From NCBI GenBank assembly GCA_964016885.1, contig OZ024742.1, forward strand, positions 86,304,001 through 86,368,000: 64,000 bases of DNA, written 5' to 3'. This stretch comes from Eledone cirrhosa. Taxonomy: Eukaryota. Positions within the stretch are counted from its first letter, which is position 1. Each line of letters starts with the position of its first letter. Positions 1,998 to 52,522 of this stretch are shown here, piece after piece. The notes beneath the pieces were generated by a model. That model was given only the letters and a program-made list of their open reading frames with translations, was not told where the DNA came from and did no database searches. The position numbers and the translations under genes are program-made.

Positions 1998-4407
1998 TAA
2001 TTCTGCAGGTACACAATTTCCTGTTATTTTGTTCCCGATGGACATATTCTATTTGATTATAGGTTAATTTTCAGTTTGTAACATTGCATACGGTATCTAT
2101 TGAACATACAAATATTTATTTGTCTCCGAAAGAGTCATTCATCCCAGGTTTATTGGAATAAAACTTACCAATAAAAGATGGGTATTTGTTTTATGTTTTA
2201 TGTTATGATTATATATTCATGATTTGTAGCTGTTACATCTGAATATGTTTCGATGTAACTATTGTGTCGTGCTCATGTATTTTAATTGCTTAGAACACGT
2301 GCACAATGCACTCAGATAATCGTTAAATAATTACATGTAAATGGATTACAATGAGTGCTTGCCATGATAACAGTGTTATTTCCTAGGGACAATATATTAG
2401 CTATATTTGTAGGCTTCAAATATTAATTAGCCATCAAGAGAACATATTTTTAAAAAAAAGTGTTGTTGATGCCACTAGAGTATAGGGAATACTTACGTGT
2501 TATTGCCGTTTATCGATTGCAGTATATATGAAGAGCTCAATGAAATCTGCTCCAATACACACTGACAACGTAAAGCGGCATATTTATATGCGGCAGGCAA
2601 GAATATTGACATTGCATTGTTTATCAAATTTGTTATTTAGTTATTAACACTCAGTGAACTTTCGTTTGTAATATGAATTACTGCATGTAGATAAAAAAAA
2701 AGTATCTTTAGAATTCCCTTCCTGAAATATTTCAGCAAAATAAATGAAAAAAAACCACACACATGCATTAATAGACCTTTATTTTCTAAGAGTAATTTCA
2801 GTTTGTATTGAAATAAGTGTGTTAAATATATCTAATTATTATAATGTACGCGTTTGTACAGAAACGCATTTAGACCTATACTGTGTATATCATTTAATTA
2901 CTATTGATTGTTCAAATTATCAATTAAATCTTATCTAAGTTGCTCTTATATTACAAATTTTAAGTAACATCATATGTACCACTAGCAAGATCAATTTTAC
3001 TAGCAATATGTCAATTTCAGTTGTATAACTGTGACGACTCGGAGATTATATTAATATATACTTTCAATTAACTTGTTGGTGAAATATATCCTACAGTTAA
3101 ACATAATATTTATATCATTTAAACCATATTTCATCACAAGGTTATTTGGAGAATGCTTCAATAAACGTCACTATAGATACATTCTTAGCCATTCCAACTA
3201 CACATTGTTCTAAGTACACTTGTCCATTTCAAAAGCTTTTAATTGACTCCGATCAATGTGAATATTACTCTTGCAGCTGAAATATTTACTAATGATTTTT
3301 GTCTCTGAGTTTCTAAAACTGCGTAAGGTAATGTCAAATTCAAACCACGATTCATTTTACATATAACTATTCCAAAGAGTACGAGCACAGTCTGACATTC
3401 CAATTATTTATTGTATAGCTGGCGGTTTTTGTAGAAGCATACGAGAAAGATGAATATTACTGTCGTCTTTACATTCATCAGTTTCATATTTTTCAGGTTA
3501 TTCATATAAATATAAATATTGATTTAATACTACATACACGGTGCAATATCGGGATAAAGGTCTGTCATGTAGTTATGACCACACCAATTGAATTGCTAGA
3601 AATTTTGTATAATCCGCAAATAATTAAAATTCTATTAGATGTGAATACATAGCGTAAACATCATGTAATCTGAAATGTTTTTCTGCAAATTTCAATGTCC
3701 ATATATATATAACCCGTTATTTTATTTGGTCAAAATATTCCGTTCTTAATCAGTACAGAAATGTAACTCCCGATGTGGATTAATATCCAGAATAGAAATA
3801 AGAATGCTGATGAAAATGTTTTTTCGTGTCACATTTTATTGTACCAATTACTAACATCCACTATATTATAATTGAATATTACTTTGCCAAAATATACGCA
3901 CTAAAATAGGGTTTGCAAACATTTAGTATAATTAATTATGCTATTTCAAAATTCCATAATTCGTTCAAACAGTTGATCTAAATGAAAAATATGATACTAT
4001 AGAATAACGTATGAACTTTTCTTAGGTTTATAAATATAATTTGGGTCAAAATAGCCTCGGAATAAGATGGTGTATAACAGTTTTACTCAAAGTCGCAAAA
4101 ATATACGCGAAGATATATAATGTTTAGATAAGATGAATGATGTTTCAACGAATGAATATTTGAAATGAACTCATTTGTTACATTCATTTGCTCTATGAGG
4201 CGATATATTAGATTACCTTTGGGAAACTGTCGTAAGATTTGTTGTGATGTTGATATTATATTGATAAATTTTAAACAATAAATGTCATGAGACACCCGTA
4301 TAATAGAATATGATGAATTGAAGTAGAACAATAATGCGAAATATTTGTATTCTTCATATATAAATCACATGAAAGATATAAAGTCCTAACGGAATAGTAA
4401 TGTGGTA

Positions 4408-4929
4408 CACGTGCAACAAAGCGAATACCCTCCATCAGGCATCTACCATACTCTGAACTCCTTGCTTCCCTGGGCGTGGATACATTGAAGCTCCGACGCC
4501 TGGCAGCTGACTTGGTAAACACTCACAAAATTGTTAACCATCTTGCCAACAACAACCCTGAGTACCTTTTTGATTTCCATATGTCTAACACACGTGGGCA
4601 TGCCCACAAAGTCAGAAAACAGCACAGTTCCCCTGACTTTCGGGAACATTTTTTCATGCTCAGAGTTGGTGAAACATGGAACAAACTACCTGCATCAGTT
4701 GTTAGCTGTCGAGACACTGCATCCTTTAAAACCTCCATGCTTCCCGAGGTTCGCCAACACTACACCTAATGTTCCCCCTCCATACACATACACATATGTA
4801 TATTATGACTCAAATACTATTCACTTCCCTGACATTTGTATATTATTCTATGTACTATACATGCACCTTTGACGAGTTGTAGTGCACCTGAGCACTTTAC
4901 ACAATAATTTCATTATTATTATTATTATT
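4408..4929 (+). mobile_element. 5'-truncated CR1/L2-group LINE, ORF2 C-terminus plus 3' UTR and (ATT)n tail
   Basis: RATKRIP..LPYSE..LG..LKLRRL..TRGH..FF.LRV..WNKLP..SFK is the typical CR1/L2 post-RT C-terminus (ORF 4476-4769); ends in (ATT)n at about 4912-4929. Confidence 0.85.
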
Positions 4930-5147
4930 GAATGCTATGGTTGACGGAGGCTCGGCTCTGTAAGGTATTGTAAATTTTGAACACTATAACAATTGTAAAT
5001 TGTTTAAAACTTTAACGAACTTGTAGACAAAAACACCCTCCTCCTCGTGAGAGGGGTCTTTCTGCCCGTTATTTGGCCCTTCGGGGTTAAATAACTGCTT
5101 ATTGGGGTTTTGTACCCAACATTTATTTTAAACAAAAAAAAAACAAC

Positions 5148-7248
5148 ATGGCTACGAAAAAGAAATTTCATAGGTCACTCCCACTCATTCCGTCTTCTTC
5201 TTCCTCAATCATCACTACAGCAGAGAGAAGATTGTCTCTCTCCCTCCCTTCTTTAAATGTGTCGCTCTCCCTCCCTTCTCTTTCGCAAGCGACGAAAGAA
5301 AAGAAAAGTCTCGTGCAAAGCGTGCAAAGTTTCTCCACGACGACGACGACAGCGACGAAACAAGTGTGCGGGAAATACGAAAACCCAGTTCATTCGTCTG
5401 ACGTCAGGAATAATAGCAGTAGCAGCCGTAATAACAACAGCAACAGTGACAATGAAAACAACAGTAGCAGCCGCAACAGCATCACCAGCAGCATAAACAA
5501 CAACAGCATTAGTAGCAGCAACACCAACAACAACCACAGCAATAGCGGCGGAGGCAGTAGTCGTAGTACCTGCAGCAACAACAAAAGTAACAGCAGCTCT
5601 GACGACAACAACAACAACAGCAGCAAAGAAAAACCAATCTCATTTGCAGGTATTGCGAAAAACTTGGAAACAATCCTCATAACAGGAATTAGAGGAAGCG
5701 AAGAAGATGGTGACAAAGAATGGACACCGAGCAATCTGCAAGGCAGCGGAAAACATTTTCGAAACCCAACAGCACTGTACGGTCACGTACCGTACAGTAA
5801 GTACAAAATCCCGTAGGGTGGAAAGAGCCACAGAGGCCCAAATACAAAAGGCCTTGGGGTCTGTGTGGCAGCGGAAAACGCACATCACCCGAGGCAAAAA
5901 ATATGCCACCGTAGACGTACTTTTTGCCACAACCCAGGAGGCAAAGGCCCAATCCGTAGTGACCCTAAGGAGCGAGGAAATGGTGTTGGTGTCCTCCTAC
6001 TGCGGGCAAAAAATTGTGAGGGTCAAACTGACCCCCCCCCCCCCCCCCGGAATGGCCCCTTCTTGGCTGGCCGCGTCTGTCCTCGTCGGAATCGAGGACA
6101 AAACAACTGTACTACAAGTACAGAAAAAAGTAAGAGAAGATTGGGTCGGCACCTCCATTGAGATGCTAATCCAAACCAACCAGGAGTGCATCGAAGCTAT
6201 CCCGGATGTGATAGACTTCGATAACGGCACTCAACTGCCCATAAGTGTTGATGGAAAACGCCCGAAATGCTTTCGCTGTGGATCGAAGACTCACCTCAGG
6301 GCCTTCTGAAACGAGAAGACCCTGAGAAAGGAGAAAACCCCCCTCCTTCCGAAACCGGCTCCATGGCTACCAGCAACAGGACAAGCGGCAACCAGGAACG
6401 ATAGGTCCGTGGCACCCATACCCACGCCACGGAAATCAAAAACAGCAGCAGCAGTGGAAATATTAACAACAACAACAGCAATACCAAATGCAGCTGCAAC
6501 AGAGACTCCAGTGCAAACATCACCAACAGCAACAAGTGAAAGAGTGGAGCTGGTACCCCTCTCCGACCTCACAGAATCAGACATGGAGTGTGAGGTGGGA
6601 GAGGGATGGCAAAAGGTCGTAAGAAGTCACAAACGCAGAAGCAGCGCATCGTCGCCTTTGAAAAGGGAGGACAGAAATGAGAAAAGGGTAAAGTCTACTG
6701 CAAAGAGACCCACAGCAGCAACACCACCAACACCATCACCACCCACTCTAGCACCACCATCACCACCGGCGACAACCCCACCGCCAACAACACCTTCAAC
6801 ACCACCACCACAAGCACCAAGATCGCAAACACAACAACAAAACACACACACCCAGCAACAACGACAAGAAAATAGCAGAACCACACCCCACCCCCAGAAA
6901 AACAAATGCACGGCAATAAATACACACAACAAGAAACTAATGACTTACATAGTTGAACACACAGACATTTCACAACACGACTACATAATACCAGCACCAA
7001 TCAAAACGCCAACTAACATAAGACTGCTAAAAATAGCACAGAAACAATACACAAACATTAAAACGAAATTCCCCAACGCAGTTGGTGATTTCAGGGACCT
7101 AGGAAGAACTATCAATCGAAGAGTATATTCAGACATTCTCTTAGAAGAGCCGACGACCAGCCGAAGGGACGATTGTAGGGTCCCTTCACCAGACGATCAA
7201 GTGAAAAGGGATGTAAAAACGATCCCTCCTCTACCAAAAGTACGGTAA
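5148..7248 (+). pseudogene. Tx1-A ORF1 (gag-like), disrupted by frameshift and stop
   Basis: ORF pieces 5148-5816, 5707-6309 and 6409-7248. Ser/Asn-rich N-terminus, putative RRM-like region, zinc knuckle CFRCGSKTHLRAF(C>stop), Pro/Thr-rich linker. Confidence 0.8.
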
Positions 7249-7283
7249 GTGGTCTTTCCCATCTTTTCCACTCTATTGTAAAC

Positions 7284-10200
7284 ATGACCTCACTCAGAAT
7301 AGGCAGCATAAATGCGCGTAGCTTGGGGTCGTCATGGAAGCAGGGTCACCTGCTCAACGACCTCAGGTCACTAAACATAGATGTAGTGGCCATCAGCGAG
7401 ACCAGAATCTCCGAAGCACGGGCCTTCGCACCGATCTTCGGCGGCTACGATGTGTACGCATCTCCCAGCCGTCCTGGATCGGGGGGAGGAGTTGCTGTGC
7501 TTTTTCGGAGAGATTTGGATCTCGCCATACGGGCCATCTTCCTGGACCCAGAGGGTAAGCTGGTGGTGCTGGACGTGACCAGCGGAGACGGGCAAGCTTT
7601 CAGGCTAGTGGCCGTCTATGCCCCGACAGGAGCAGGGCAGCCTGATTTCTTCCGGCGTCTGGAGACCTTTCTTGGAACGTCCCGCTCTTTAGTGTTAGTG
7701 GGCGACTGGAACGGGATCTTAGATGCACGCTGGGACTGTGTGGGATTAACGGATAGGGGTGGAGGGTGCAAGAGCCTCACCAACCTGCTCAGGCGTTTTG
7801 AACTGTCTGACAGGTACCGATTGGATTTCCCGAATGTGCCAATGTGGACTTGGAGAAATCGCATAGGGTCATCCAGATCATATCTAGATAGAGTATTTTG
7901 TAGGGAAATAGATAGGTCTAGCATAGGCTGTCCACAATTCAAGATAGTCAGCTACACGGACCACAACTTCGTGATCTGTGTGCTTGACTTAGATAGGCTT
8001 CATAGACGAGGACCCGGCTACTGGAAGCTAAACGCGTCCTTACCAGCGCGCAAGGCCTACAGTGACCAGATTAGCGAACTAGTTAAGCGGGCGTTGACGG
8101 GGGCCATCGTCAACAACAAGTGGTGGTTTGCTCTGAAAAGAGCGATTAGAATAGAATCGATTAGGTTTAGTAAGGCTTTAGCAATAGAGCAAAATAGAGC
8201 AGAGGGAGAACTAGTTAGAAAATTAAACGAGGCGCTTAGCAAAGGCATTGCGACCGACGTGCTTGCGGCGAAATTGGCCCTTGACCAATTCTTCAATGCA
8301 AAGCACGAAGGCTGCGTTGTCAGAGCAAGGGTGCGTGCTCTCAGACACGAGGGGACGAAAGCCGTTCAATGGGCCCGAGTGGCGGAGGCGCGTCGTGGAA
8401 CCAAAGCCACGATCCGGTCTTTGGTGGACCACGACGGGCGCATGCTACTCGATCCCGGGCAAATGTGTGAAGCTTTTCAGCGACACTTCGCTCAGCTGTT
8501 CGGGGGCAGCGGTGCGCCGGGTCGAGGGATGGACTTTAGTGTCTACCTAGACGGACTGCCGCGGCTCTCGGCCACTGAGGCGAAGTGTTGCGAAAAGCCG
8601 ATAACAGCAGCTGAAGTAAGGGAGGCAATGACTGGCTGCACAAGGGGTAAATCGCCTGGTTTGGATGGTCTGCCCTATGAACTTTAGGTACAGATGCCAG
8701 ACTTGTTCGGAGGCCTCTTGGCGGACGTCTACTGCAACTGGCAACAGAACGGGAGAATTCCCAGTTCTGTGAGCCGAGGAGCGGTGGCACTGCTGAGAAA
8801 GGATCCGAACAAGGGGGATAACATAGATAATTTCCGGCCCATAACTCTGCTAAACACAGAGTTCAAGATTTTGGCCAAGGTGCTAGCAAAGAGGTTGGCG
8901 CTTGTCGTTGGTGGTCTGGTGGGAGAGGCGCAGACATGCGCCATTCCCGACAGATCCATCCACGACAACCTCCACCTCATGCGATACATCGTAGAGAGGG
9001 TAGCTAGGGAACCTGGCACGGGTGGGTCCTTGATCAATTTAGATCAGTCAAAAGCTTTCGATAGGGTCGACCATCGTTACCTAGCGGCAGTCCTGATGGC
9101 GGCTGGCTTTGGGCCCGTCTTCAGAGGCTGGATCGCTGCCATGCACAGCGACATCATCTCTGTGGTGAGAGTGAACAGTCACCTGTCGGAACCGTTCAAC
9201 ATCATGCGCTCGGTCCGCCAAGGATGTCCCCTCTCGTCTCTCTTGTACGTATTGACTCTCGAGCCATTACTGCACAAACTGGAGACGTTGAGGGGAGTCC
9301 CGCGCGAACTAGGATGCGGAAGATCCGTGTCATCATATGCGGACGATGTCACCGTAGTGGTGTCGAACGCCAAACACATCGAGGCGATCGGCACTACACT
9401 AAGAGAATACGAAGCGGTGACAGGAGCAATGATCAACCAGGAAAAGTCAGTGGGCCTGCAGATCGGCACCTGGAGAGGCAGGTCCATGCCGTCCAACAGC
9501 GTCGTCGGACGCTGGACGGATGGACCGGTTAAATTGCTAGGTGTCTGGTTCGGTCCAGACCTCCAGGCGGACAAAAACTGGGACGAGGTGACGAGCAGGG
9601 TGGCTTCTCTCACCCAGAAATGGGCGGAGAGGAAGCTATCCCTGAAAGGTCGAGCGGAGGTGGCTAACGCGTACATCGCGTCTGTCATCTGCTACCGCCT
9701 GACCGTCGTACCTTGTCCTAAGCCTCGCCTGACTGCGCTGGAGCGTTTGCTCTTTCGCTTTTTGTGGAAGGGACGCGCTCCGATGGTCAGGCGGTCCATC
9801 TGTTGTCAACACCCGCTACGTGGAGGGCTGGGCATGCCGTGGCTGATGATGCGCAAGCACGCGCTCAGGCTACGACATGTCCACCTCTTCCTCGACGGTG
9901 ATCAGGTGTGGTCGCCGTTTGCTAGACAAGTCTTTCCCCAGCTCGTTTCCTTGACGGAGCTGCAGTCCTGGGTCAAGCGAAGACCGAGAAGGAGCGCCTG
10001 GAGACTGGAATGTCTTCAGGCGCTCACAGCCCTCGACCAATCGGGCAATGTGATCGGTGGAAACTCCACCTCGGCGTTCTATAGAGGATTAGTGGAGGGG
10101 AAGAGCGACGACGTACTTGGGGAAAATCTAGGCGTCGACGAAAATCAACTAGCCAATCTCTTCGGAAGAACTTTCGGGCCAGGGCCTATGGACAACTTCC

Positions 10201-10700
10201 AGAAATCTCTGGCCTGGCAGTGCTACCGAGGAGCCTTGCCAGTTCGGGATAAACTCTACAGGCATGGAGGTGCCGTCAACCGGGCATGTCCTAGATGCGC
10301 GCATGGCGACGAAACCGTCCTGCACGCACTCGTCCAGTGTCCGAAAATTGCTGACTTGTGGGTTTATGTCGAACACCTGCTGTCGCGTTTAGGACGGATC
10401 CGGCTATCATCTGAGTCCATCGTGAGGATTGCCCCGCCCTCCTCCTTTAGCCGGGAAGGGCAGGCAGTTTTTATCTGTCTGGTGGCCAAGAGATAGTATG
10501 GTGGACACGTTTGAAAGGGCTGAAGACGAGCACTTACCTCTTCGGTGATGCTCTGATTGACTTTTTCAAATTTCATTTGAAAAGGAAAATCAGAGTAGAG
10601 AGGGAAGTGCTCTCTTCCCAGCATTTTGTTGAAAGATGGGTGAGAGAAGCAAGAATGGCCCGAGTGAATGGGCCTACTCTGAGTATATATTTGTACATTA
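7284..10700 (+). pseudogene. Tx1-A ORF2: APE endonuclease, reverse transcriptase, C-terminal Cys/His finger
   Basis: SINARSL, ISET, VYAP, GDWN, LDR and TDH endonuclease motifs; PGLDG, FRPITLLN, DQSKAFDRV, VRQGCPLS and YADD RT motifs; CPRC..HALVQC. One in-frame TAG at 8685-8687 and a frameshift near 10490. Confidence 0.93.
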
Positions 10701-11192
10701 AAGGTGGAAAACTGGGAGAGGGTTCTTGCCTTGGTGGTCAGGGTCATTGTGTTTTTTTACTGGGCTTTCTCCACAAATGTCCCTCCGAAGTCTTCCCCCT
10801 ATTGGGGAATTTTTCATTGTTATTTTTTGTTACATCCTCTTTTTGTTTTTTACACGCAGAAATGCCCATTTGTACCGTCCTGTATTGTCCTGTACTGTCC
10901 TTAATGTCTACTTTATGTAAACCCTTGTGGTTAATAAATAAATCATTATTATTATTATTATTATTATATGGCCGCACATGTGTGAAGACAGACAAGTCTG
11001 CGGGGGAAACAGTTCGTAGCTTTAAGCTGTTTTAAAGTGTCTTTTTTTTGTATTTTCTTGTCATTAACGAAACTTAAGGTACACAGAGAGGGATACCTCT
11101 CAATATTCGAGCTTTAAGCCCGAATATTCAGATTTATTTTTAAAATCTTCGAAAAAAAAAAAAAAAAATCGCTTCCCCACCAAAAGAAAATT

Positions 11193-13163
11193 ATGGAAAT
11201 GTTCGACCTTGAAACGGTAAACAACGTTCAGGTCAAAAGTTTAAAGGCAGTCACTGCAGATTTCACCACGACTACGACGGCTACAGTCATGCCTGTCATC
11301 CACTCTACTGAATGTGAAGGCAAAACTAAGAAGCTACCATCACAATATTCTGGCATAGCAGCAGTATCATCTGAAAACGACATCACCACCACCAACACCA
11401 CCACCACAACAACAACAACTCAGAGCAATAACGACAAAAACACCGACAGCTTCAATGTAAACAAGGATGGCGGTGGCAACAGCAAGAATGACAACAACAA
11501 CAATAAGAGCATCAGAAACACCACATTTGCTGCAGCAGCAGCAGCAAAAACAAAGCGCTTATTGAATATCGATATTGATATTAGCGATAAAGACGAACAG
11601 TTAGCCAAAGCGTGGAGGCTAATTAAACGGGAGAAGTCCTGGGCAAACCTGACCATCCCGGACGAGGCAATAGCGGCCATGCAAAGGAGGACGGTGCTCT
11701 TTCGATGTATTTCGGTGCAGACACGAAAAGTGGAACTTGCGAGCCAAGCAGAGGTAGAGGCTGCGTTGGAGTACATCGGAAGTAACATAGAGTACAAAGC
11801 AAGAGGCAAACAGTTCGGTACCATCTCGGTTCTGTTCAAATCCGAGGCCCTCGCTATTAAGCACTCGGTGATCCCCTGCAGAACGGAACGCATTATCATG
11901 CATCCGTCCTATATGGGTAAAAGGACAGTGAAGGTACGCATTCCCAGCATCCTACCAGGAATGAACATATGGTGGCTGCTGGGATGCGTAATCGAGGAGG
12001 GGACAGACACCACCCTCCTGGACATCAAAAGGACAGAGAGAGAAGACTGGTCCGGAATGGATTTGGAGATTCTTCTCCAAATGAAACCGGAGGATATAAA
12101 TAACATCCCAGATTTTGCCCGCCTGCAGGACGGGACAACAATCCAACTCATGATTGACGGAAGAAGGCCACGCTGCTTCGTTTGCGGGGAAGCCACGCAT
12201 CTTCAAGCCTTCTGCCCTCAGCGCAAAAATGCAGGGGGTCGCAAACCTCCTTTGTTGCCAACGCCAGTGTCAGCACGGAAAGCTGCACCACCACCACCAC
12301 CAAAAACAACATCAACAAAAACACGGACACCAACATCAAAAGCAGCCGGATCACCACCAACACCAAAACCAATCCAAGGAGAAAACGAGGAAAGCTCTCC
12401 CACTCCCCCTACCCCCCAACTATATACATAGACAAACAAAAATAAACGCACACACAGACACAGAGACACTCACAGACACAGACCCTTTGTCTTCCAGCAG
12501 CGAAGATGAAGGAAAACCCAAAAGTGCAAAAAAACAGAGAAAACTCACACAAAAAAAAAGCCCCTACAAAACACAAAAACACACACAACAACAAATACAG
12601 ACACCACTAACGCAGACACTTCCCCAATAACATCAGCACCATCAGCAACATCGACACCACCTCCACAATCCCCGAAACGCAAACAACCTAAACAAACACA
12701 AGTACAAATAAACACACAAATACCTGAAATTGCAGACACCACACCTACAACAAACATAGACATACTCGAAACAACACCACCAAAACCATCGCCACCACCT
12801 TCACCAAAACGAAAACAAATAAAACCACACCAACAAAATGTTAAAAACTTCGTGCTTGTCAGAAGGGCCAACGATAAACTGATGGCCCTCTTAGCGCGAA
12901 GCGAGGACATTCAAACAGAGGGGGAGATTTTTGAAATGAGCACATTTTGCGTGCCAGAAGATTTGCTTCTGGTCCGAATGTCACTCAATTCTTTCAAAGA
13001 AATTCGAGAGAGCTTTCCTCAAGACGTGGGAAACCCGAATGTGAAACCCACATCAAGACTTTTAAAGGGGTTCCCAATAGAAACCCCACCAACCATGGAG
13101 GTCGAACCACCCGACCTTCACAAGACCCGGGAGGTAAGTAAACCTTCCCTCTCTCTCTCTTAG
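11193..13163 (+). pseudogene. Tx1-B ORF1 (gag-like), frameshifted
   Basis: ORFs 11193-12431 and 12852-13163. CCHC knuckle CFVCGEATHLQAFC preceded by IPD...DGT.I.L.IDGRRP, aligning with family A IPD...NGT.L.ISVDGKRP. Confidence 0.8.
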
Positions 13164-13172
13164 CTTATCAAT

Positions 13173-16100
13173 ATGGCCATATTAAGAGTAGGAAGTTTAA
13201 ATGTTCGCGGCCTGGGGTCACCCTGGAAGCAGGGTCGCCTGCTCAACGACCTCCGGTCGCTGGAAATGGATGTGATTGCCGTAAGCGAGACCAGAATTTC
13301 CGACACGCGTGCAATAGCCCCCATTTTCGACGACTATCAGATCTTCGCATCTGTTAGCAGGCCGGGAATGGGGGGTGGGGTGGCAGTGCTGTTTAGGAAA
13401 GGACTGGATCTCGAGGTAAGGTCGATCTTCCGGGACCCGGACGGTAAGTTGGTGGTCTTGGATGTGAGCAGTAGCGAAGGTGGTGCCTTTAGACTGCTGG
13501 CCGCCTACGCCCCTACAGGGGGCCGGACGACCTGACTTCTTTAGGCGTCTGGAGACCTTTCTGGGTACGTCTCGCCCTTTACTGTTAGCGGGGGACTGGA
13601 ATGGCATCTTAGACGCACGCTGGGATTGTGTGGGAGTAGCCGATAGGAGCGGGGGGTGCAAAAGCCTCAAGCACCTACTCAGCCAGTTCCAACTGTCTGA
13701 CAGGTATCGACTAGATTTCCCCAATGTGCCAGTATGGACATGGACCAACCGAATTGGGTCATCTAGATCGTATATAGACAGAATCTTCATTAGGAAAATA
13801 GATAGAAATAGTGTGGGCTGTCCACTTTTTAAAACGGTCGCCTATTCAGATCACAAATTTGTGATCTGTACGGTCGACCTAAATAAAACGCGTAGGTTAG
13901 GACCGGGTTACTGGAAGCTGAATATTTCATTTCCGGCAAGTAAGGCTTACAGGGACCGAGTCAATAAGTTAGTTAAGCAAAAGTTGACAGGGGGGATCAT
14001 CAACAACAGATGGTGGGGGGCTCTCAAAAGAGAGATTAGAGTAACTTCGATAGAGTTCAGCAAAGAACTAGCGTTAGAGAAAAATAGAAAGGAGGGGGAG
14101 CTGGTAGATAAGTTAGACGAGGCTATTTGTAGTGGCATCGCAACTGACGTGCTAGCGGCGAGAATGGCATTAGACCATTTCTTCAATGCCAAACACGAAG
14201 GTTGCATTGTCAGAGCTAAGGCGCGTGCGCTGAGAAACGAGGGAACTAAAGCTGTTCGATGGGCCCGCGTGGCGGAGGCGCAGCGTGGTAATGAAACCAC
14301 AATTCGGTCTTTGGCGGACCGAGACGGACACGAGATAAGCGATTCCAAGCGGATGTGTGAGGCCTTTCGCCAGCACTTTGCTCGGTTGTTCGGGGAGAGT
14401 GGCGGGTCAGAGAGAGTAGCGGATTTCAGTCCCTACCTTGACGGCTTGCCGCGCATCTCGACGGTCGCGCTGAGCGCTGCGAAAGGCCGATTACTTCAGC
14501 CGAAATTCAGGACGCCCTTGTCGGCTGCATGAGGCGCAAGTCACCAGGCTTGGATGGCCTGCCCTACGAGCTTTACGTAAATATGCCAGACTTGTTCTCC
14601 GAACTCCTTGAAGCACTCTACTGTAACTGGCAGCAGATGGGAGTATTGCCAGTTCTGTGAGCAGGGGAGTGGTGACACTGATAAGGAAAGACGAGAACAA
14701 GAGGGATACATTAGACAACTTCAGGCCCATAACTCTGCTCAACACAGAGTTTAAGATTTTGGCCAAGGTGTTAGCAAAGAGATTGGCGCTTGTCGTCGAG
14801 GATTTGGTTGGGGAGGCGCAAACTTGCGCAATCCCAGCCAGGTCCATACACGACAATTTCCACCTCATGCGATACATCATAGAGAGGGTAGGGTGTAAAC
14901 CTGGCTTCGGTGGGGCACTGATCAATTTAGATCAATCGAAAGCATTCGATAGGGTCGACCATCGGTATCTGGAGTTTGTCCTCAAAGCAGCTGGCTTCGG
15001 CCCTGTCTTTAGAAGCTGGATCGTTGCAATGCACAGCGGCACACGCTCGGTGGTCAAAGTTAATGGCCACCTCTCGGAACCATTTCGGCTCTCCCGATCG
15101 GTCCGTCAAGGGTGCCCTCTCTCTTCCCTTCTGTACGTATTGACTCTCGAGCCTTTACTGCGGAAGCTGGAGCTGTTGCAGGGCATCCCGCTCGAACCGG
15201 GACGTGGAAAGGCGGTGTCGGCTTATGCGGACGACATCACCGTGATGGTGTCGAACACCACAGAAATCGAGGTGGTCGGCACCTTATTGAAGGAATATGA
15301 AAGGTTGACAGGAGCCAAACTTAACCCGGAAAAGTCGGTGGGCTTGCAGCTCGGAACCTGGAGAGGTAAGCCCATGCCGTCCAACAGCGTCGTGGGTCGC
15401 TGGACGGACGGACCAGTAAAGTTGCTCGGGGTTTGGTTCGGACCAGACCTCCAGGTGGAAAAGAATTGGGACGAGGTAACGAGCAGAGTAGCCAGTCTCA
15501 CCCAAAAATGGGCTGGGAGGAAGCTATCACTGAAAGGTCGCGCGGAGGTGGCGAATGCGTACATCGCGTCCGTCATCTATTACCGCCTAACCGTCGTGCC
15601 TTGCCCCCGTCCGCGCCTCGTTAAGTTGGAACGGCTCCTCTTCAAATTCTTGTGGAGGGGACAAGTTCCGTTGGTGAGGCGGTCCATCTGCTGCCAGCAC
15701 CCTCTACACGGAGGGCTGGGCATGCCGTGGCTAATGATGTGCAGACATGCGTTGAGGCTGCGACAGCTCCAGATATTCTGCCTCAATGGTGAACAGGTGT
15801 GGTCGCCGTTTATCAGACGGGCCTTTCCGCAGCTCATTTCTTTGACTGAGCTGCAGTCCTGGGTCAAGAAGAGACCGAGACTGGGTGACTGGCACCTGGA
15901 ATGTTGCCAGGCACTCACTGCCCTCTACCAAGCGGGCAATGCGATCAGTGGAACTTCCACTCTCGAGTTTTATAGAGGATTAGTGGTGAGCAAGTGCGAT
16001 GACGCACTCGGAGAAGCTTTGGGCCTCGACGAAGTCGAACTGACCAGTCTGTACCGGAGGACTTTTGAACCGGGGACGATGGACAATTTCCAGAAATCCC

Positions 16101-16243
16101 TCGCTTGGCAGTGCTACCGGGGGGCACTGCCGGTTCGGGATAAACTCTAGAGAAGTGCTGCCCCCCAGTACATTTGCTAAAAGGTGGGTGAATGTGGCAA
16201 GAATGGCTCGTGTGAATGGGCCTACTCTGACCATGCGCCTATA
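13173..16243 (+). pseudogene. Tx1-B ORF2 (APE + RT), frameshifted, C-terminal finger deleted
   Basis: ORFs 13173-13535, 13480-14532 and 14657-16150 with YADD. The sequence jumps from ..GATAAACTCTAG to AGAAGTGCTG, skipping the CPRC region present in family A. Confidence 0.92.
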
Positions 16244-16518
16244 GGCTGGCTAACTTGAGGAGAGGGGTGCTCTCCTGGGTGCCCTAGAAGTGCAGGGTGG
16301 TTCAGGATTGGTGGGGTACCCGAATCACCCCAGGGTCGTCCACCCCCTATCGGGGAATTTATTTTGTTATATTTTGTATAGTTTATTTTATATTTTATAT
16401 TTTTATTGTTAAATTAGTCTTGCCATTGTGCACTTTTACTCGACCTTATTGTAAACCCCCACTGTCCCTGTCTTTGTATTGTCCCCTACATGTCGGCCCT
16501 TGTGGCTAATAAATGAAA

Positions 16519-16589
<71 letters not shown>

Positions 16590-17290
16590 GTTGTTCTTTG
16601 AGTCTCAGTCATTTATGTTAGTTAACTGGAAAGTTTGTTGAAATGAATATCAAGCATGCCTTTTGAAGCGTTCCAAAAAGCGTGAAGGGGCCAATTTTCT
16701 TTAACCATCCCTGGAAAAATTTTGAGATAGTCCCTAGTGCGCCTATGATAATCGGGATCACTTTGACTTTATGGCAGTTCCAAATCCTTTTTACCTCCCA
16801 CTTTAAGTCCTGGTATTGGTTAATTTTCTCCCTCTCCTTCTCTTGCACTCTCGTGTCGAATGGGCAGGCCACATCCACAATCAGGCACGATCTTTTTTCT
16901 TTGTCCAAAGCCACCAGGTCAGGTCTATTGTGTTCCAGTTTCTTGTCCGTATATATCCTAAAATCCCACAGCACCTTCACCTGATCATTTTCTATCACCG
17001 CCTCTGGCTTATACTCATACCACTTCTCAGAATGTGGTAAATTGTTTACTTTGCATAGGTGCCAGTGGATCACCCTGCCCATCACATCATGTCTCCAGCC
17101 CTTATAGTGAGTCTGGGCTAGGTGTTTACACTCGGATACAATGTGAGCCACAGTCTCCTCTCTCTCTCCACAGATCCAGCACAGTGGGCTAGCCTCCTCC
17201 TTGTAAATATGGTGTTTCAACCACTTCGTTTTGAGGGCCTGCTCTTGCGCAGCCATTAGCACTCCTTCTGTAGACTTTTTAAGGTCTCCT
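16590..17290 (-). mobile_element. 5'-truncated R4/Dong-clade LINE (family D1), restriction-like endonuclease end
   Basis: CWICGEREETVAHIVSEC knuckle, RHD, and RPDLV..D...IVDVACP motifs (ORF 16618-17262). About 60 bp missing at 16654 relative to the copy at 17579. Confidence 0.9.
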
Positions 17291-17578
17291 GAGTATGTGT
17301 CTGTAAATTAAAGGTGGAAAACTGGAAGAGGGCACTTGCCCTAGTGGTCAGGGTCACTGTGGCCTTTTAATGCGCTTTCTCCACAAATGTCCCTCCGAAG
17401 TCTCCCCCCTATTGGGGAATTTATCATTATTAATTTTATTTAATCCTCTGTTTTTGTTTTTTTACACGCAGGAATGCCCATTTGTACCGTCCTGTATTGT
17501 CCTGTACTGTCCTTAATGTCTACTTTATGTAAACCTTTGTGGTTAATAAAGAAAGCATTATTATTATTATTGTTATTA
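17289..17578 (+). mobile_element. 3' fragment of Tx1 family A with (ATT)n tail
   Basis: Aligns with 10679-10945; AATAAA followed by (ATT)n. Confidence 0.9.
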
Positions 17579-19828
17579 CTCTTTGAGTCTCAGTCATTGA
17601 TGTTAGTTACTGGAAAGTTTGTTGAAATGATTATCAAGTCACTACGTGCAGCCTCAGATATTCAGGACGTATCGGAGGGTTCTTGCTGTTCCCAGCAAGC
17701 ATGCCTTTTGAAGCGTTCCAAAAAGCGTGAAGGGGCCAATTTTCTTTAATCATCCCTGGAAAAATGTTGAGATAGTCCCTAGTGCGCCTATGACAATCGG
17801 GATCACTTTGACTTTATGGCAGTTCCATATCCTTTTTACCTCCCACTTTAAGTCCTGGTATTGGTTAATTTTCTCCCTCTCCTTCTCTTGCACTCTCGTG
17901 TCGAATGAACAGGCCATATCCACAATCAGGCACGACCTTTTTTCTTTGTCCAAAACCACCAGGTCAGGTCTATTGTGTTCCAGTTTCTTGTCCGTCTGTA
18001 TCCTAAAATCCCACAGCACCTTCACCTGATCGTTTTCTATCACGCCTCTGGCTTATACTTATACCACTTCTCAGAATGTGGTAAATTGTTTACTTTGCAT
18101 AGGTGCCAGTGGATCACCCTGCCCATCACATCATGTCTCCAGCCCTTATAGTGAGTCTGGGCTAGGTGTTTACACTCGGATACAATGTGAGCCACAGTCT
18201 CCTCTCTCTCTCCACAGATCCTGCACAGTGGGCTAGCCTCCTCCTTGTAAATGTGGTGTTTCAACTACTTCGTTTTGAGGGCCTGCTCCTGCGCAGCCAT
18301 TAACATTCCGTCATGAGCCTTTTTAAGGTCTCCTCTTTTCAACCAGTTCCATGTCTGTGGATCTCTAAATTCAGTTTTCTCAAAGAAGGTACTATCAAGG
18401 GATTTTTCCTGAAGGCTGCTCTTTCTCCTTGATGTTATTTCCTCCTTGGACATCCCCTGGCCTATTGTCCCCTCCTTAAGTACAGCTCTGAGCATTGGCT
18501 CCTTACTATCAGTCACGTATTTGTGTAGGTTGTTTTTCTCCATCTGAACACAGTCCTCTATGCTGATAAGACCTCTTCCACCCTCAGATCTCCTTAAGTA
18601 GAGTCTATCGACATCACTCCTCTTGTGGAACATATTGTAGATAGTCAATAGATTCCTAGTCTTCCTATCCATTTTTTTTTTGTTCAGCAACATTCCATCT
18701 CAGAATTCCCGCACTGTACCTAATAATAGACACAGCTCGGGAATTTACTGCACTTATGGCATTCCTACTGTTCAGATGTGACTTTAATACGCTCCTTACT
18801 CTCCGAAAGGAATTCAGTTCTTATCAATTCCTTCATTTTTTTGTTCTTGATGTCATCAGCCTCCAGAACGCCCAAATATCTGTATCCTTCTTCAGAGTCA
18901 ATTTCTTTTATCATTTCGCCTGTGGGTATCTGGATTCCGTTACTTCTGCTCAACTTACCCCTCCTCATCACAATGACTTCACACTTACTAATACCAAATT
19001 GCATACATATATCATTGCTGAAAATACGGACAGTGTCAACAAGCACATCCAGCTCCTTCTCACTCTTCCCGAAGAGCTTAAGATCGTCCATGAAGAGGAG
19101 GTGATTGATGGTAAGCCCTCCCTTCCCCAACCTGTATCCTGCTCTCACTTTTCGCAGTACAATGGTCAGGGGCATCAGGGCAAGGACAAACAACAGAGGG
19201 GACAGACTAGAAGATACCCCTCTTGATCTTCACGCTTCCCAAGGATTCTCCAGTTGATGTTAACTCTGTTTCCCAGGACTTCATACTTTTGCCCAACAAC
19301 TGCCTGATGTTATCTGCCACCTTGAAGATCTCCAGGCTTTTGGTGATCCAAGAATGGGGCACCATGTCAAATGCCTTTTTGTAGTCTACCCATCCCATGG
19401 CAAGACCAGTGTGTCTCCTCTTGCAATTCCTCATTACCATCTTATCAATAAGTAACTGGTCCTTTGTACCACGTGACTTCTTTCGGCATCCTTTCAGTTC
19501 GTCCGGTAACAAGTTGTTTGTGTGGAGGTGATGGTAGATTTCCTCAGACATAATGCTTGTCAACAGTTTCCACATTACGGACAGACATGTGATAGGTCTA
19601 TAGTTGGTAACATCATTACCCTTGATTCGGTCTTTCATTTTCAGAACTGTGGTACCTTTTGTCAACCACTCTGGTACCTCACCTGACATCAAGCAGTCAT
19701 TGAACATGGTTGTCAGTTTCGGGTGGAGGGATGTTATGTTTTTAATCCAATACCCCTGCACACCATCTGGGCCAGGTGATTTCCAGTTGGTTAGTTTTTT
19801 GGCCCGCCCCTTAAGAGTTTCAACTGTG
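17579..19828 (-). mobile_element. 5'-truncated R4/Dong-clade LINE (family D1), RT + RLE, disrupted
   Basis: NWKSPGPDG, YRPITCL, DYKKAFDMVPH and HLLFMDDLKLF RT motifs, CCHC knuckle and RPD endonuclease, split over ORFs 19207-19761, 18765-19193, 18265-18693, 18040-18264 and 17750-18043. Confidence 0.92.
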
Positions 19829-19865
<37 letters not shown>

Positions 19866-19866
<1 letters not shown>

Positions 19867-21550
19867 AGTTGCATTTATCTTGCTTTATGTTCATACGAGT
19901 TATCACCAAGTCACAACCAGTGACCTCAAGAGACAACAAGGTCCGCCATGTTCAAGAAAGAACATACATACTCACACATGCATCTTTAGTGTTTAGACTT
20001 GTGAAGTACTTATATTGACAGAATCTTCCTTAGTATATGGCCAGTTCCCATTAGTACTATCTTTTGTATTTCTCCTATACGCGGGTTTCCTGGGATTTGC
20101 GATAAGTAATCATTAGACCCCTTAGGTATCATTCCCAGAGCGCCTACAACCACTGGTATTGTTTTAGGTCTCAATTTCCACATTTTTCCAATTTCTATCT
20201 CCAGTCCTTATACTTGCTCAATTTTTCAAATGTTTTTATAGATACATTCTTGTCTATTGGAACAGACATATCAATCAGCAGGCATAAACTCTTTTTAAAG
20301 TCCTAAAATATTATATCAGGTCTATTTGCATCTATTTTTCGGTCTGTTTGGATGCTAAAGTTCCACAAGATTGAGATGTGATCTTTTTCAAGTATGGGAG
20401 GTGGTTGATGCTCCCACCAATTCTTTTGATGGGGCAGGTCAAAATGCTTACACATTATCCAATGTATGTATTGTGCAGCTCTGTCATGCCTGTTTAGGTA
20501 TTCGGTTGGAGCTATAGGACTGCACATTGAAATTATATGGTCAATGGTCTCTGGTTGTTTTTTGCATACACGGCATAATGGGCTGCATCCATTTTTTATT
20601 ATGTTGGCTTGGTAATTTTTGTTGGCAGACACTGATCTTGTGCTGATATAATCAGTCCTTCAGTCTCCGATTGCAGTCCAGAGGATGCCAACCACTGATG
20701 GGTTAAAGTTTTGTCAACATCAGGATTGTTAGCTCGCTCTGGGTATTTTCCATACAGAGGCTTTTCTTGCCATTTCTTAGCCAGTTTCTGTAGCAGTTCT
20801 TTCTTTGCAGTTACTTTTACCTGCTTTGCTTTTTCTGTGTTTTCCATTGCAGCAGTAAATGGGACTTCTGAAATGTGTAGTCCATTACTGTATCTTTGTG
20901 CATCTTTTGTAATCGAATATGAACTTTTGATGCTTTCGTGTTTCAAAACGAGTTTGATCATCCAATCATGTGATTCCCTTAGATATGTAGATAATCCAAT
21001 TGTTGCAGTTTTCAACGCAATGTCTAACTGGATTGACCCACGTCCTCCTTCTTTCCTAGGGAGATATATTCTATCTATATCTGCCTTAGGGTGATGCATT
21101 CTGTGCATGGTTAAGAATTTTCGTATTTTTGTATCGAGCCTACGGATCTCTGTGCTTGACCAGTTGATGACATTGTAACTGTAGGTTACTACTGGTATGG
21201 CAAGCGTGTTTATGGCATCGATCCTATTCCTTGCATTCAATTCCGTTCTTAAGTTTGCTCTTACTCTGCGGTAACATTCCTTCCTTATCCTTTCCCTCAC
21301 TGTCGAGTGCTTGATTCCGTCCCCTTCACAAACACCTAGATATTTATAAGTTTTTCCTTGATCAAGTTTTCTTATTACGTTCCCCCGATCAAGATTAATG
21401 TCTGAACTCTTCAGCAGCTTTCCTCTGGTGAACGTTGCTTTGGCGCATTTATCTAGTCCAAACTCCATTTTAATGTCATCACTGAAATGCTCCACAGTGG
21501 ATAACAGCCCTTGCAATTGTTCATCATTTTTTACAAATAGTTTCAGGTCA
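19866..21550 (-). mobile_element. 5'-truncated R4/Dong-clade LINE (family D2)
   Basis: MEFGLDKC, YKYLG, RIYLPRKEGGRG, CRVC..ETIDHIISMC, RHD and RPDI motifs (ORFs 20599-21516 and 20303-20632); (ATT)n on both sides. Confidence 0.9.
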
Positions 21551-21575
21551 TATTATTATTATTATTATTATTATT

Positions 21576-22299
21576 TGCATTTATCTTGCTTTATGTTTAT
21601 ACGAGTTATCACCAAGTCACAACCAGTGACCTCAAGAGACAACAAGGTCCGCCATGTTCAAGAAAGAACACACATATTCACACATGCATCCTTAGTGTTT
21701 AGACTTGTGATGTACTTATATTGACAGGATCTTCCTTAGTATATGGGCAGTTCCCATTAGTACTATCTTTTGTATTTCTCCTATACGCGGGTTTCCTGGG
21801 ATTTGCGATAAGTAGTCGTTAGACCCCTTAGGTATCATTCCCAGAGCGCCTACAACCACTGGTATTGTTTTAGTTCTCAATTTCCACATTTTTCCAATTT
21901 CTATCTCCAGGTCCTTATACTTGCTCAATTTTTCAAATGTTTTTTATAGATACATTCTTGTCTATTGGAACAGACATATCAATTAGCAGGCATACCCTCC
22001 TTTGAAAGTCCTTCAATATTATATCAGGTCTATTTGCATCTATTTTTCGGTCTGTTTGGATGCTAAAGTTCCACAAGATTGAGATGTGATCTTTTTCAAG
22101 TATGGGAAGTGGTTGATGCTCCCACCAATTCTTTTGATGGGGCAGGTCAAAATGCTTACACATTATCCAATGTATGTATTGTGCAGCTCTGTCATGCCTG
22201 TTTAGGTATTCGGTTGGAGCTATAGGACTGCACATTGAAATTATATGGTCAATGGTCTCTGGTTGTTTTTTGCATACACGGCATAATGGGCTGCACCCA

Positions 22300-22303
<4 letters not shown>
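21576..22303 (-). mobile_element. Shorter copy of R4/Dong family D2
   Basis: Near-identical to 19870-20597; followed by (ATT)n at 22304-22361. Confidence 0.9.
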
Positions 22304-33943: not shown

Positions 33944-34016
<73 letters not shown>

Positions 34017-34017
<1 letters not shown>

Positions 34018-34556
34018 TGATGGATCTTACTGGATCAACAAGAAGTCTCAGACCCCATTTGACGTTAGCATGGGAGCGAGTGACTCGGCTGAAATTAGCG
34101 ACCTCGTGGGCTTGTACATCCTACATCACCTGAAGAACCTCTTTACCGGCCTAACCGGAGCTTTATACCGAGACGACGGTCTCTTCGCCCTGCACAAGGT
34201 TAACCTCAGAACCACCGATGGGTTTCGGAGAAATTTAAGCTCGTTCTTCTCTAATCTATGATTTAGTATAACTATAGAATCTAATATGACTAGGGCCAAA
34301 TTCTTAGATGTCACTCTCGACCTAGATACTTCCCTCTATTGCCCGTACCACAAACCTAACGAGTCCCTTAGATATATTAATGTTAATTCCAACCACCCCC
34401 AAAACATCACTGTCAACTTAGTAAAAAGCGTCTCTATTAGAATCTCTGGCCTCTCTGCCAACAAAGATATGTTTAACGCCTCTGCCTCCTACTACAATGA
34501 CGCCCTAGCCCGCAGCGGATTTAAAGAAAAGATAACCTACCTAGAAACCACCGCAA
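34017..34556 (+). mobile_element. Internal RT fragment of the Naiad family at 43041-45182
   Basis: [35 protein letters not shown], nearly identical to the reverse complement of about 43754-44293. Confidence 0.9.
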
Positions 34557-52108: not shown

Positions 52109-52522
52109 TATATGTGTGTGTGTGTGCGTATATGTGTGTGTGTATGTATATGTTATATCTATGTATGTGGTTGTGTATATGTGTGTATTGCTTACCAGTG
52201 TGTTTGTCCATTTATTTATGTGTGTCCTTTCCTGTATCGCTGTCAACTTAATAATATTTTTTTATTTCCTAAGTCTCATTTTTTATTTTTTTCATTTGTA
52301 TGTGACGGTCTATTGCATTATGTTTTTTATTTTTATTTTTTCTTATAATTAATTGTGTGTGCGCGTATGTAGGTGTGTATATATATCTATATATGTGTGT
52401 GCGTACGTATGTGTGTATATATGTGTGTATGTATGTGTGTGTGTGTATGTGTGTATATATATATATATAAATATATATATATGTTTATACGTGTTTGTGT
52501 ATTTATGTGTAAGTGCATGTAT

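Follow-up and report, generated by a model that had tools for sequence, protein, structure and literature searches.

Whether the whole second open reading frame (ORF2) of a long interspersed nuclear element (LINE) can serve as an alternative intron is the question raised by a stretch of 64,000 nucleotides (nt) of the Eledone cirrhosa genome (NCBI GenBank assembly GCA_964016885.1, contig OZ024742.1, positions 86,304,001 to 86,368,000 of the forward strand), referred to below as the window. It contains a full-length L1/Tx1-type element, assigned here to family 1, with a U1-complementary 5' splice-site motif (ACG/GTAAGT, 7242-7250, + strand, phase 2) lying over the stop codon of its ORF1, and the sequence-only reading of the window had proposed a spliceosomal intron from 7245 to 10859 that contains all of ORF2. 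Comparison of genomic copies firmly indicates, as the main secure result, that the boundary between ORF1 and ORF2 bears a conserved donor motif specific to this LINE lineage, and the joining of this putative donor specifically to 10859 is plausible.

The motifs on which the proposal was built are present where they had been placed: the candidate donor at 7245-7250 overlaps the TAA of ORF1 (7246-7248), a T-rich tract ends in ACACGCAG at 10859, and the in-frame tail of 20 residues translates as claimed up to a TAA at 10918-10920, followed by AATAAA at 10933. For the comparison, a donor was defined as a site within 70 nt 5' of the ORF2 start that reaches a score of 7.5 or more, out of 9, against the U1 consensus. 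Such scores occur at 0.26 per kb in ORF2 and the 3' untranslated region (UTR), with a probability of about 0.017 per 65 nt. An ORF2-start pattern blind to the upstream sequence gave 1,092 genomic matches. The first 30 loci in genome order contain 26 distinct ORF2 starts, of which 25 have a donor, and over all 61 starts fetched the number is 52. Of the nine without one, three are point mutants, two carry a weaker version of the site, two are truncated at the 5' end, one is a degraded fragment and one belongs to an RTE element. The GT is kept in 1,947 of the 1,979 family-1 copies with exact exon-end matches. The U1-complementary site stands 25-53 nt 5' of the ORF2 ATG in nine of nine lineages, always at or just 5' of the ORF1 stop, and all three reading phases are represented: phase 2 (Arg-stop) in families A, B, C, 1 and 1b, phase 1 (Gly-Lys-stop) in family D and the older members of family 2 (old 2), and phase 0 in its young members (young 2). 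Since the phase differs by lineage, neither the peptide nor the stop codon, that is to say no protein constraint, explains the donor.

Among the nine lineage representatives, donor positions -1, +1, +2, +3 and +6 are invariant and positions -2, +4 and +5 agree in eight, with the flanking columns agreeing in three to eight. Between deep lineages, fourfold-degenerate sites have an identity of 52-67%, and across five lineages 81 of 271 such sites are invariant, a rate under which the five invariant donor columns would be expected with a probability of about 0.002. The lineages deviating at +4 or +5 have a perfect CAG at -3 to -1, and such an offset is what base-pairing compensation predicts. Immediately 3' of the donor, the ORF1-ORF2 spacer (7251-7283, + strand, in the window element) is rich in pyrimidines, which make up 78-89% of positions +7 to +24 in all nine lineages. 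Selection on a 5' splice-site motif at the end of ORF1 is well supported by these comparisons, and the consensus donor, above chance and kept in every lineage, has come out stronger than the sequence-only reading had claimed. Its sharing by the nine lineages represents retention and not nine origins, because they have a common ancestry. The donor was found in none of 28 distant L1-clade relatives (23-33% identity, two duplicates included; 28 of 72 metagenome relatives reached the ORF2 start), and the 5' UTR and ORF1 contained no consistent donor elsewhere. In a profile search of protein databases, 8 of 20 ORF1 relatives end in or pass through GK, GR, GE or a terminal R, which is only a hint that the donor may exist in other octopods.

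Six young dispersed copies (L064, L067, L075, L078, L079 and L081), located on five contigs, carry a G-to-A change at donor position +1 and have a near-private variant in common. In a tree including 27 copies with GT they appear, with weak tree support, to descend from one donor-dead source, so that full-length RNA can apparently be made and copied in the absence of the donor.

The window element (4930-10944, + strand, inserted in an (ATT)n repeat) shares 96.8% identity with L111, an intact copy elsewhere in the genome, whose ORF1 and ORF2 encode 698 and 1139 amino acids (aa). It is dead in both frames: ORF1 (5148-7248, + strand) has a 5-nt deletion near 5685 and a TGA at 6307-6309, and ORF2 (7284-10696, + strand), which lies within the proposed intron, is interrupted by a TAG (8685-8687) and has lost 7 nt near 10488. 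The splice claim can thus concern only the LINE family and not the window copy. A second element, of family 2, follows at about 10970-16522, with an ORF2 that is 76% identical to that of family 1. Its equivalent donor (GAG/GTAAGT, 13131-13139, + strand, phase 0) is placed 39 nt upstream of its ORF2 ATG (13173), the same spacing as in family 1, and 217 genomic copies have the GT. In young family 2, ORF1 and ORF2 share one frame over 13134-13175, split by a single TAG (13161-13163) in 19 of the 20 loci read, and stop read-through there would produce an ORF1-ORF2 fusion; in its older relatives ORF1 stops earlier and in another phase. A separate observation concerns family C (L156, L159, L161, L170 and L171), in which the 47-48 nt after the donor resemble a complete mini-intron right before the ORF2 ATG.

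The acceptor end presents a more mixed picture. The candidate CAG (10857-10859) closes a U-rich tract (10810-10859, + strand), and the predicted terminal exon (10860-10944, + strand) would contain the in-frame tail and the AATAAA (10933-10938) before the (ATT)n repeat. According to our own heuristic, 10859 ranks first of 265 AGs, and the AG is kept in 64 of 69 family-1-type 3' ends, 30 of which were chosen by likeness to the window 3' end. Of about 260 AGs per element, one at the ORF2 end or in the 3' UTR scores highly in other lineages too: such an AG ranks first in families 1, young 2 and A and second or third in D and most of B, and ranks 1-5 across the A, B, D and young-2 representatives. 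In families A and B the terminal candidate is the TAG that stops ORF2, in young 2 the candidates are TAGs within the UTR (non-homologous, ending at 16381 and 16417 in the U-rich tract of the window family-2 element, 16380-16417, + strand), and D has a CAG near the end. In L153, L157 and L168, GT follows the TAG that ends ORF2, and this TAG provides the best terminal AG or one of high rank, as observed for families A, B and old 2; joining at this TAG would end ORF1 within one or two residues in three of four cases.

Several results weigh against an intron with a fixed end at this position. The 10859 acceptor does not exceed a local shuffle (in L111, with the UTR shuffled in 20-nt blocks, P is 0.136), an equal or better UTR site occurs in 1 of 20 scored donor-less relatives (L247), and in families A, B, D and old 2 the best real site is equalled or surpassed in 71-93% of shuffling trials. 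The comparisons leave out one entry for L208, whose end was detected wrongly, and one for L172 with erroneous coordinates. At the acceptor position family D reads CAC in three of three copies; families A and B lack a fixed AG between the hairpin described below and AATAAA, one AG being found in 7 of 11 family-A copies; and the terminal AG of old family 2 ranks only 6 and 22. By eye, no canonical branch point is visible at 10810-10850, where A10816, A10822 and A10832 are weak candidates. The added tail would vary from 1 to 71 residues across lineages, with no stop before AATAAA in three of eight cases, so the added peptide is unlikely to matter. The ORF2 interior contained no strongly conserved acceptor. 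The 3' UTR is depleted in AG, which is uninformative because depletion in GA equals it. The candidate acceptor announced by the sequence-only reading is the best-ranked site of family 1 and mostly kept there, and it is weaker than claimed, being matched by shuffles and missing from sister lineages; conservation, which that reading had put forward as a test, was observed across lineages for the donor and not for the acceptor.

Two further elements of the same proposal concern the 3' end. A separate 5'-truncated copy (17289-17578, + strand, 89.7% identical to 10679-10966), with its CAG at 17469-17471, had been cited for keeping GCAG/G; it belongs to the same subfamily as the window element (90% identical) and adds no independent support for conservation, and its G at +1 is private, the base being A in all 69 other 3' ends. 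The splice had also been said to keep the 3' end of the element. It would indeed retain the last 85 nt, while removing the U-rich tract and a small conserved hairpin motif (10793-10809, + strand). All nine representatives have the motif, in which, compared by eye, one C-G has become T-A in families A and B. Folding of the whole UTR was not above shuffles (z 0.41), and a role of the hairpin in recognition is a guess.

A spliced RNA that had been copied back should have left genomic copies lacking exactly 7245-10859, and none was encountered among the 1,979 family-1 copies, in which all 32 non-GT cases are point changes or unrelated deletions; the direct family-1 junction pattern had no match in the genome either. 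All 49 non-G copies of the 2,537-copy family 1b were read and none is spliced, and searches of smaller scope likewise found none in families 2, A, B and D. The sequence-only reading had named the absence of such copies among the outcomes that would speak against it. Exact exon-end patterns miss copies mutated at the exon end, and the coverage of junctions starting with G was complete for family 1 only and partial (GTG) for A and B, those of family C and old family 2 falling outside the search. These negatives count only moderately against the long intron, because its RNA would depend on ORF2p supplied in trans and would be without the hairpin at 10793-10809. Concerning products, a first search for the spliced tails in protein databases gave no result, and the tails of 13 of the 20 ORF1 relatives had no convincing match to a 3' UTR frame. 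A 1339-aa open frame considered as a spliced fusion was rejected as such. Contigs of X1, X5, X6 and X7 compared with the family-1 element, and of X1, X5 and X7 compared with a family-2 copy, had no joint from either donor among the matches listed (15 of 52 for family 1 and 11 of 11 for family 2). X1, the only set tentatively taken as RNA, did not cover either donor, and one X5 contig of unclear nucleic-acid type crosses the family-1 donor unspliced; these results weigh neither way.

The reading that we favour, while judging it somewhat short of an even chance, is that the donor serves a weak alternative intron removing ORF2, with a lineage-specific terminal acceptor, and that an ORF1-only mRNA would exist beside the unspliced, transposing RNA. 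The proposal of ORF2 as an intron would then stand through its selected donor at the end of ORF1, and suffers from an acceptor restricted to family-1-type 3' ends, an unconserved tail peptide and the absence of spliced copies from the searches described above. LINEs require far more ORF1p than ORF2p, a ratio thought to be set by inefficient translation of ORF2 from a bicistronic RNA. In the favoured mechanism, U1 would bind the conserved motif and the donor would join whichever 3'-terminal acceptor the lineage has, predicted to be 10859 in family 1, with an intron of 3.6 kb; the splice product would be the ORF1-only mRNA, predicted to raise the ORF1p:ORF2p ratio, the unspliced RNA would transpose, and loss of the hairpin is predicted to prevent the spliced RNA from being copied back. 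A stronger form is held more tentatively still: an octopod L1/Tx1 branch might possess a hard-wired copia-like switch in which all of ORF2 is an alternative intron, the acceptor undergoes turnover (ORF2 stop TAG or 3' UTR AGs), and the ORF1-only mRNA is never copied back because it lacks the 3' hairpin.

Rather unlikely, in our estimation, is the alternative that U1 binds the motif while splicing is rare or incidental, the bound U1 shielding the A-rich ORF1 from premature cleavage and polyadenylation, aiding elongation into ORF2 or retaining full-length RNA in the nucleus. In HIV-1, a downstream donor occludes an upstream poly(A) site. Such a role accounts for a conserved donor without a conserved acceptor and for the missing spliced copies, and AATAAA or ATTAAA hexamers do occur 5' of the donor in five of five representatives, those of family 1 lying at -330 and -188 nt. 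The available parts of the study of the plant Ty1/copia element EVD also report that U1 at its donor prevents premature termination (PMC5580714). Against it stand the six donor-dead copies of apparently single source, the lack of any canonical hexamer to suppress in ORF2 of families 1, A and B, and the scarcity of hexamers in family D ORF1; moreover, the constant position of the site at or before the ORF1 stop is left unexplained. Binding of U1 for protection and the splicing favoured here are not mutually exclusive, because both roles coexist in EVD.

Improbable in our view is that the motif is not a U1 site at all and represents either a stop-restart signal for ORF2 translation or the fixed end, by descent or chance, of an exchangeable ORF1 module. 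The shared ancestry of the lineages, which are hence not independent trials, speaks for it, as do the G-TAA-G partly given by the Arg-stop ending in phase-2 lineages and the swapping of ORF1 modules on a common ORF2 near the donor point; however, the motif persists through at least three phase shifts and the whole range of spacings, the invariance of its five columns is hardly expected at the fourfold-site rate, and its variants track the donor consensus. Least probable of all is that the donor splices elsewhere, either over a mini-intron of 30-66 nt fusing ORF1 to ORF2 (a CAG at 7297 yields an in-frame fusion in family 1, and the spacer of family C contains CTCTAAC, which resembles a branch point, together with a pyrimidine tract and a TAG) or by read-through into the next tandem unit or host exons (the elements occur in tandem arrays, and the O. 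bimaculoides model P0012 has an unrelated tail from about the donor position): RNA retaining ORF2 should be copied in cis, yet none of the 1,979 and none of the 49 inspected copies is spliced, which weighs heavily against a mini-intron, while that of families A and B would measure 39-42 nt, probably below the mollusc minimum, and the in-frame AGs come anyway from conserved Arg, Ile and Gly codons.

The family-1 element is an L1-clade, Tx1-type LINE by the domain order of its ORF2, which matches PF03372, PF00078 and PF13966 (APE endonuclease, reverse transcriptase (RT) and zf-RVT) in Pfam and has human L1 ORF2p as its closest solved structure (E 3e-52, against 1e-21 for R2); the narrower assignment to the Tx1 clade is putative and based on architecture and target preference. 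ORF1 shows a C-x2-C-x4-H-x4-C motif and has CCHC-knuckle and ZCCHC3-like RNA-binding look-alikes in the Atlas (0.90-0.93); it has no significant Pfam match, zf-CCHC being weak and confined to its homologs. Named ORF1 homologs are from Octopus sinensis, O. bimaculoides and Argonauta hians, and no relative was found in the viral contigs searched. In an Octopus sinensis gene model, P0024 (XP_036370018.1), a host protein terminates in a piece resembling ORF1, which may have been exonised by way of an acceptor near the start of ORF1. All 16 of the family-1 5' ends listed follow (ATT)n, and roughly half of these 16 stand apart from tandem arrays. Head-to-tail arrays with units of 5.8-6.1 kb, often of mixed families, were observed at C28:80.92 Mb, C1:4.24-4.26 Mb and C1:55.43-55.45 Mb, as expected if the elements insert into one another's repeat tails. 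Families 1, 1b, C and D bear different ORF1 modules (C-terminal domain 37-54% identical) on close ORF2s (82-92% nucleotide identity where measured), pointing to repeated ORF1 module swaps near the donor. Elsewhere in the window, an intact 758-aa ORF (43041-45317, - strand), with flanking pieces repeated and inverted (38962-39172 and 34016-34556), has RT-like and GIY-YIG-like motifs and presumably belongs to a Penelope-like element. Fragments that we take from their translations to be RTE-like and CR1-like occupy 16600-22300 (- strand), 4400-4910 (+ strand) and 46300-49600 (+ strand); the RTE-like ones are broken at (ATT)n runs, and one contains the family-1 3' end at 17289-17578. Positions 50271-52124 hold a tandem repeat whose unit measures about 640-645 nt.

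The nearest functional parallel is the shGAG RNA of EVD (Oberlin et al. 2017), for which the available parts of the paper describe experimentally shown splicing and, among plant copia elements, a conserved, rate-setting donor that predicts splicing better than the acceptor (PMC5580714). The likeness, within these parts, lies in a conserved donor ending the structural gene, a stop provided by the splice, a dual role proposed for U1 in splicing and in preventing premature termination, and an excess of structural protein (PMC5580714). EVD differs in being a long terminal repeat (LTR) element in which gag and pol form a single frame, the intron has the protease region at its centre and the poly(A) site is premature (PMC5580714, same parts), whereas the family-1 LINE, known here from DNA alone, has two ORFs, a predicted intron of 3.6 kb and its own terminal poly(A) signal. 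As a non-LTR element whose ORF2 contains neither AATAAA nor ATTAAA it falls outside the copia-type class, and if the splice is real it may resemble the copia short gag RNA in its working without being a member of the copia system. Human L1 also has functional splice sites, giving SpIREs and SpORF2, and some of the spliced RNAs are re-inserted, SpIRE97/622 accounting for about 1.8% of full-length insertions, according to the portions available (PMC5860796, PMC2896524). In these accounts its donors lie within the 5' UTR, ORF2 is kept in products that have lost the 5' UTR or ORF1, and splicing is described as detrimental (PMC5860796, PMC2896524); in contrast, the conserved donor of family 1 ends ORF1 and would remove ORF2, and re-inserted spliced copies were not found in the copies searched. 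Kibi and Koshi are similarly microsatellite-targeting Tx1 APE-RT LINEs residing in simple repeats, the target here being (ATT)n, and the parts available mention no splice signal for them (PMC4494074). For Octopus vulgaris, 13 recently active L1-Tx1 families are reported in the sections at hand, and the string 'splic' is absent from the main text (PMC13282606). Drosophila TART is a non-LTR element with spliceosomal introns similarly spaced in divergent subfamilies; its introns are in antisense transcripts and ORF2 is not removed from the sense RNA, as described in the accessible part of PMC1636488, where Tad transcripts with introns are also cited. A literature search, with most subscription papers and supplements (transposable-element libraries) outside its scope, retrieved no ORF2-removing intron and no conserved ORF1-end donor in any LINE.

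If the favoured reading is true, a LINE lineage would be exploiting host RNA processing and converging on the solution of copia elements and retroviruses, with a U1 site retained through near-saturating synonymous divergence. Carried by thousands of young copies, the donor might moreover give rise to chimeric splicing within host genes.

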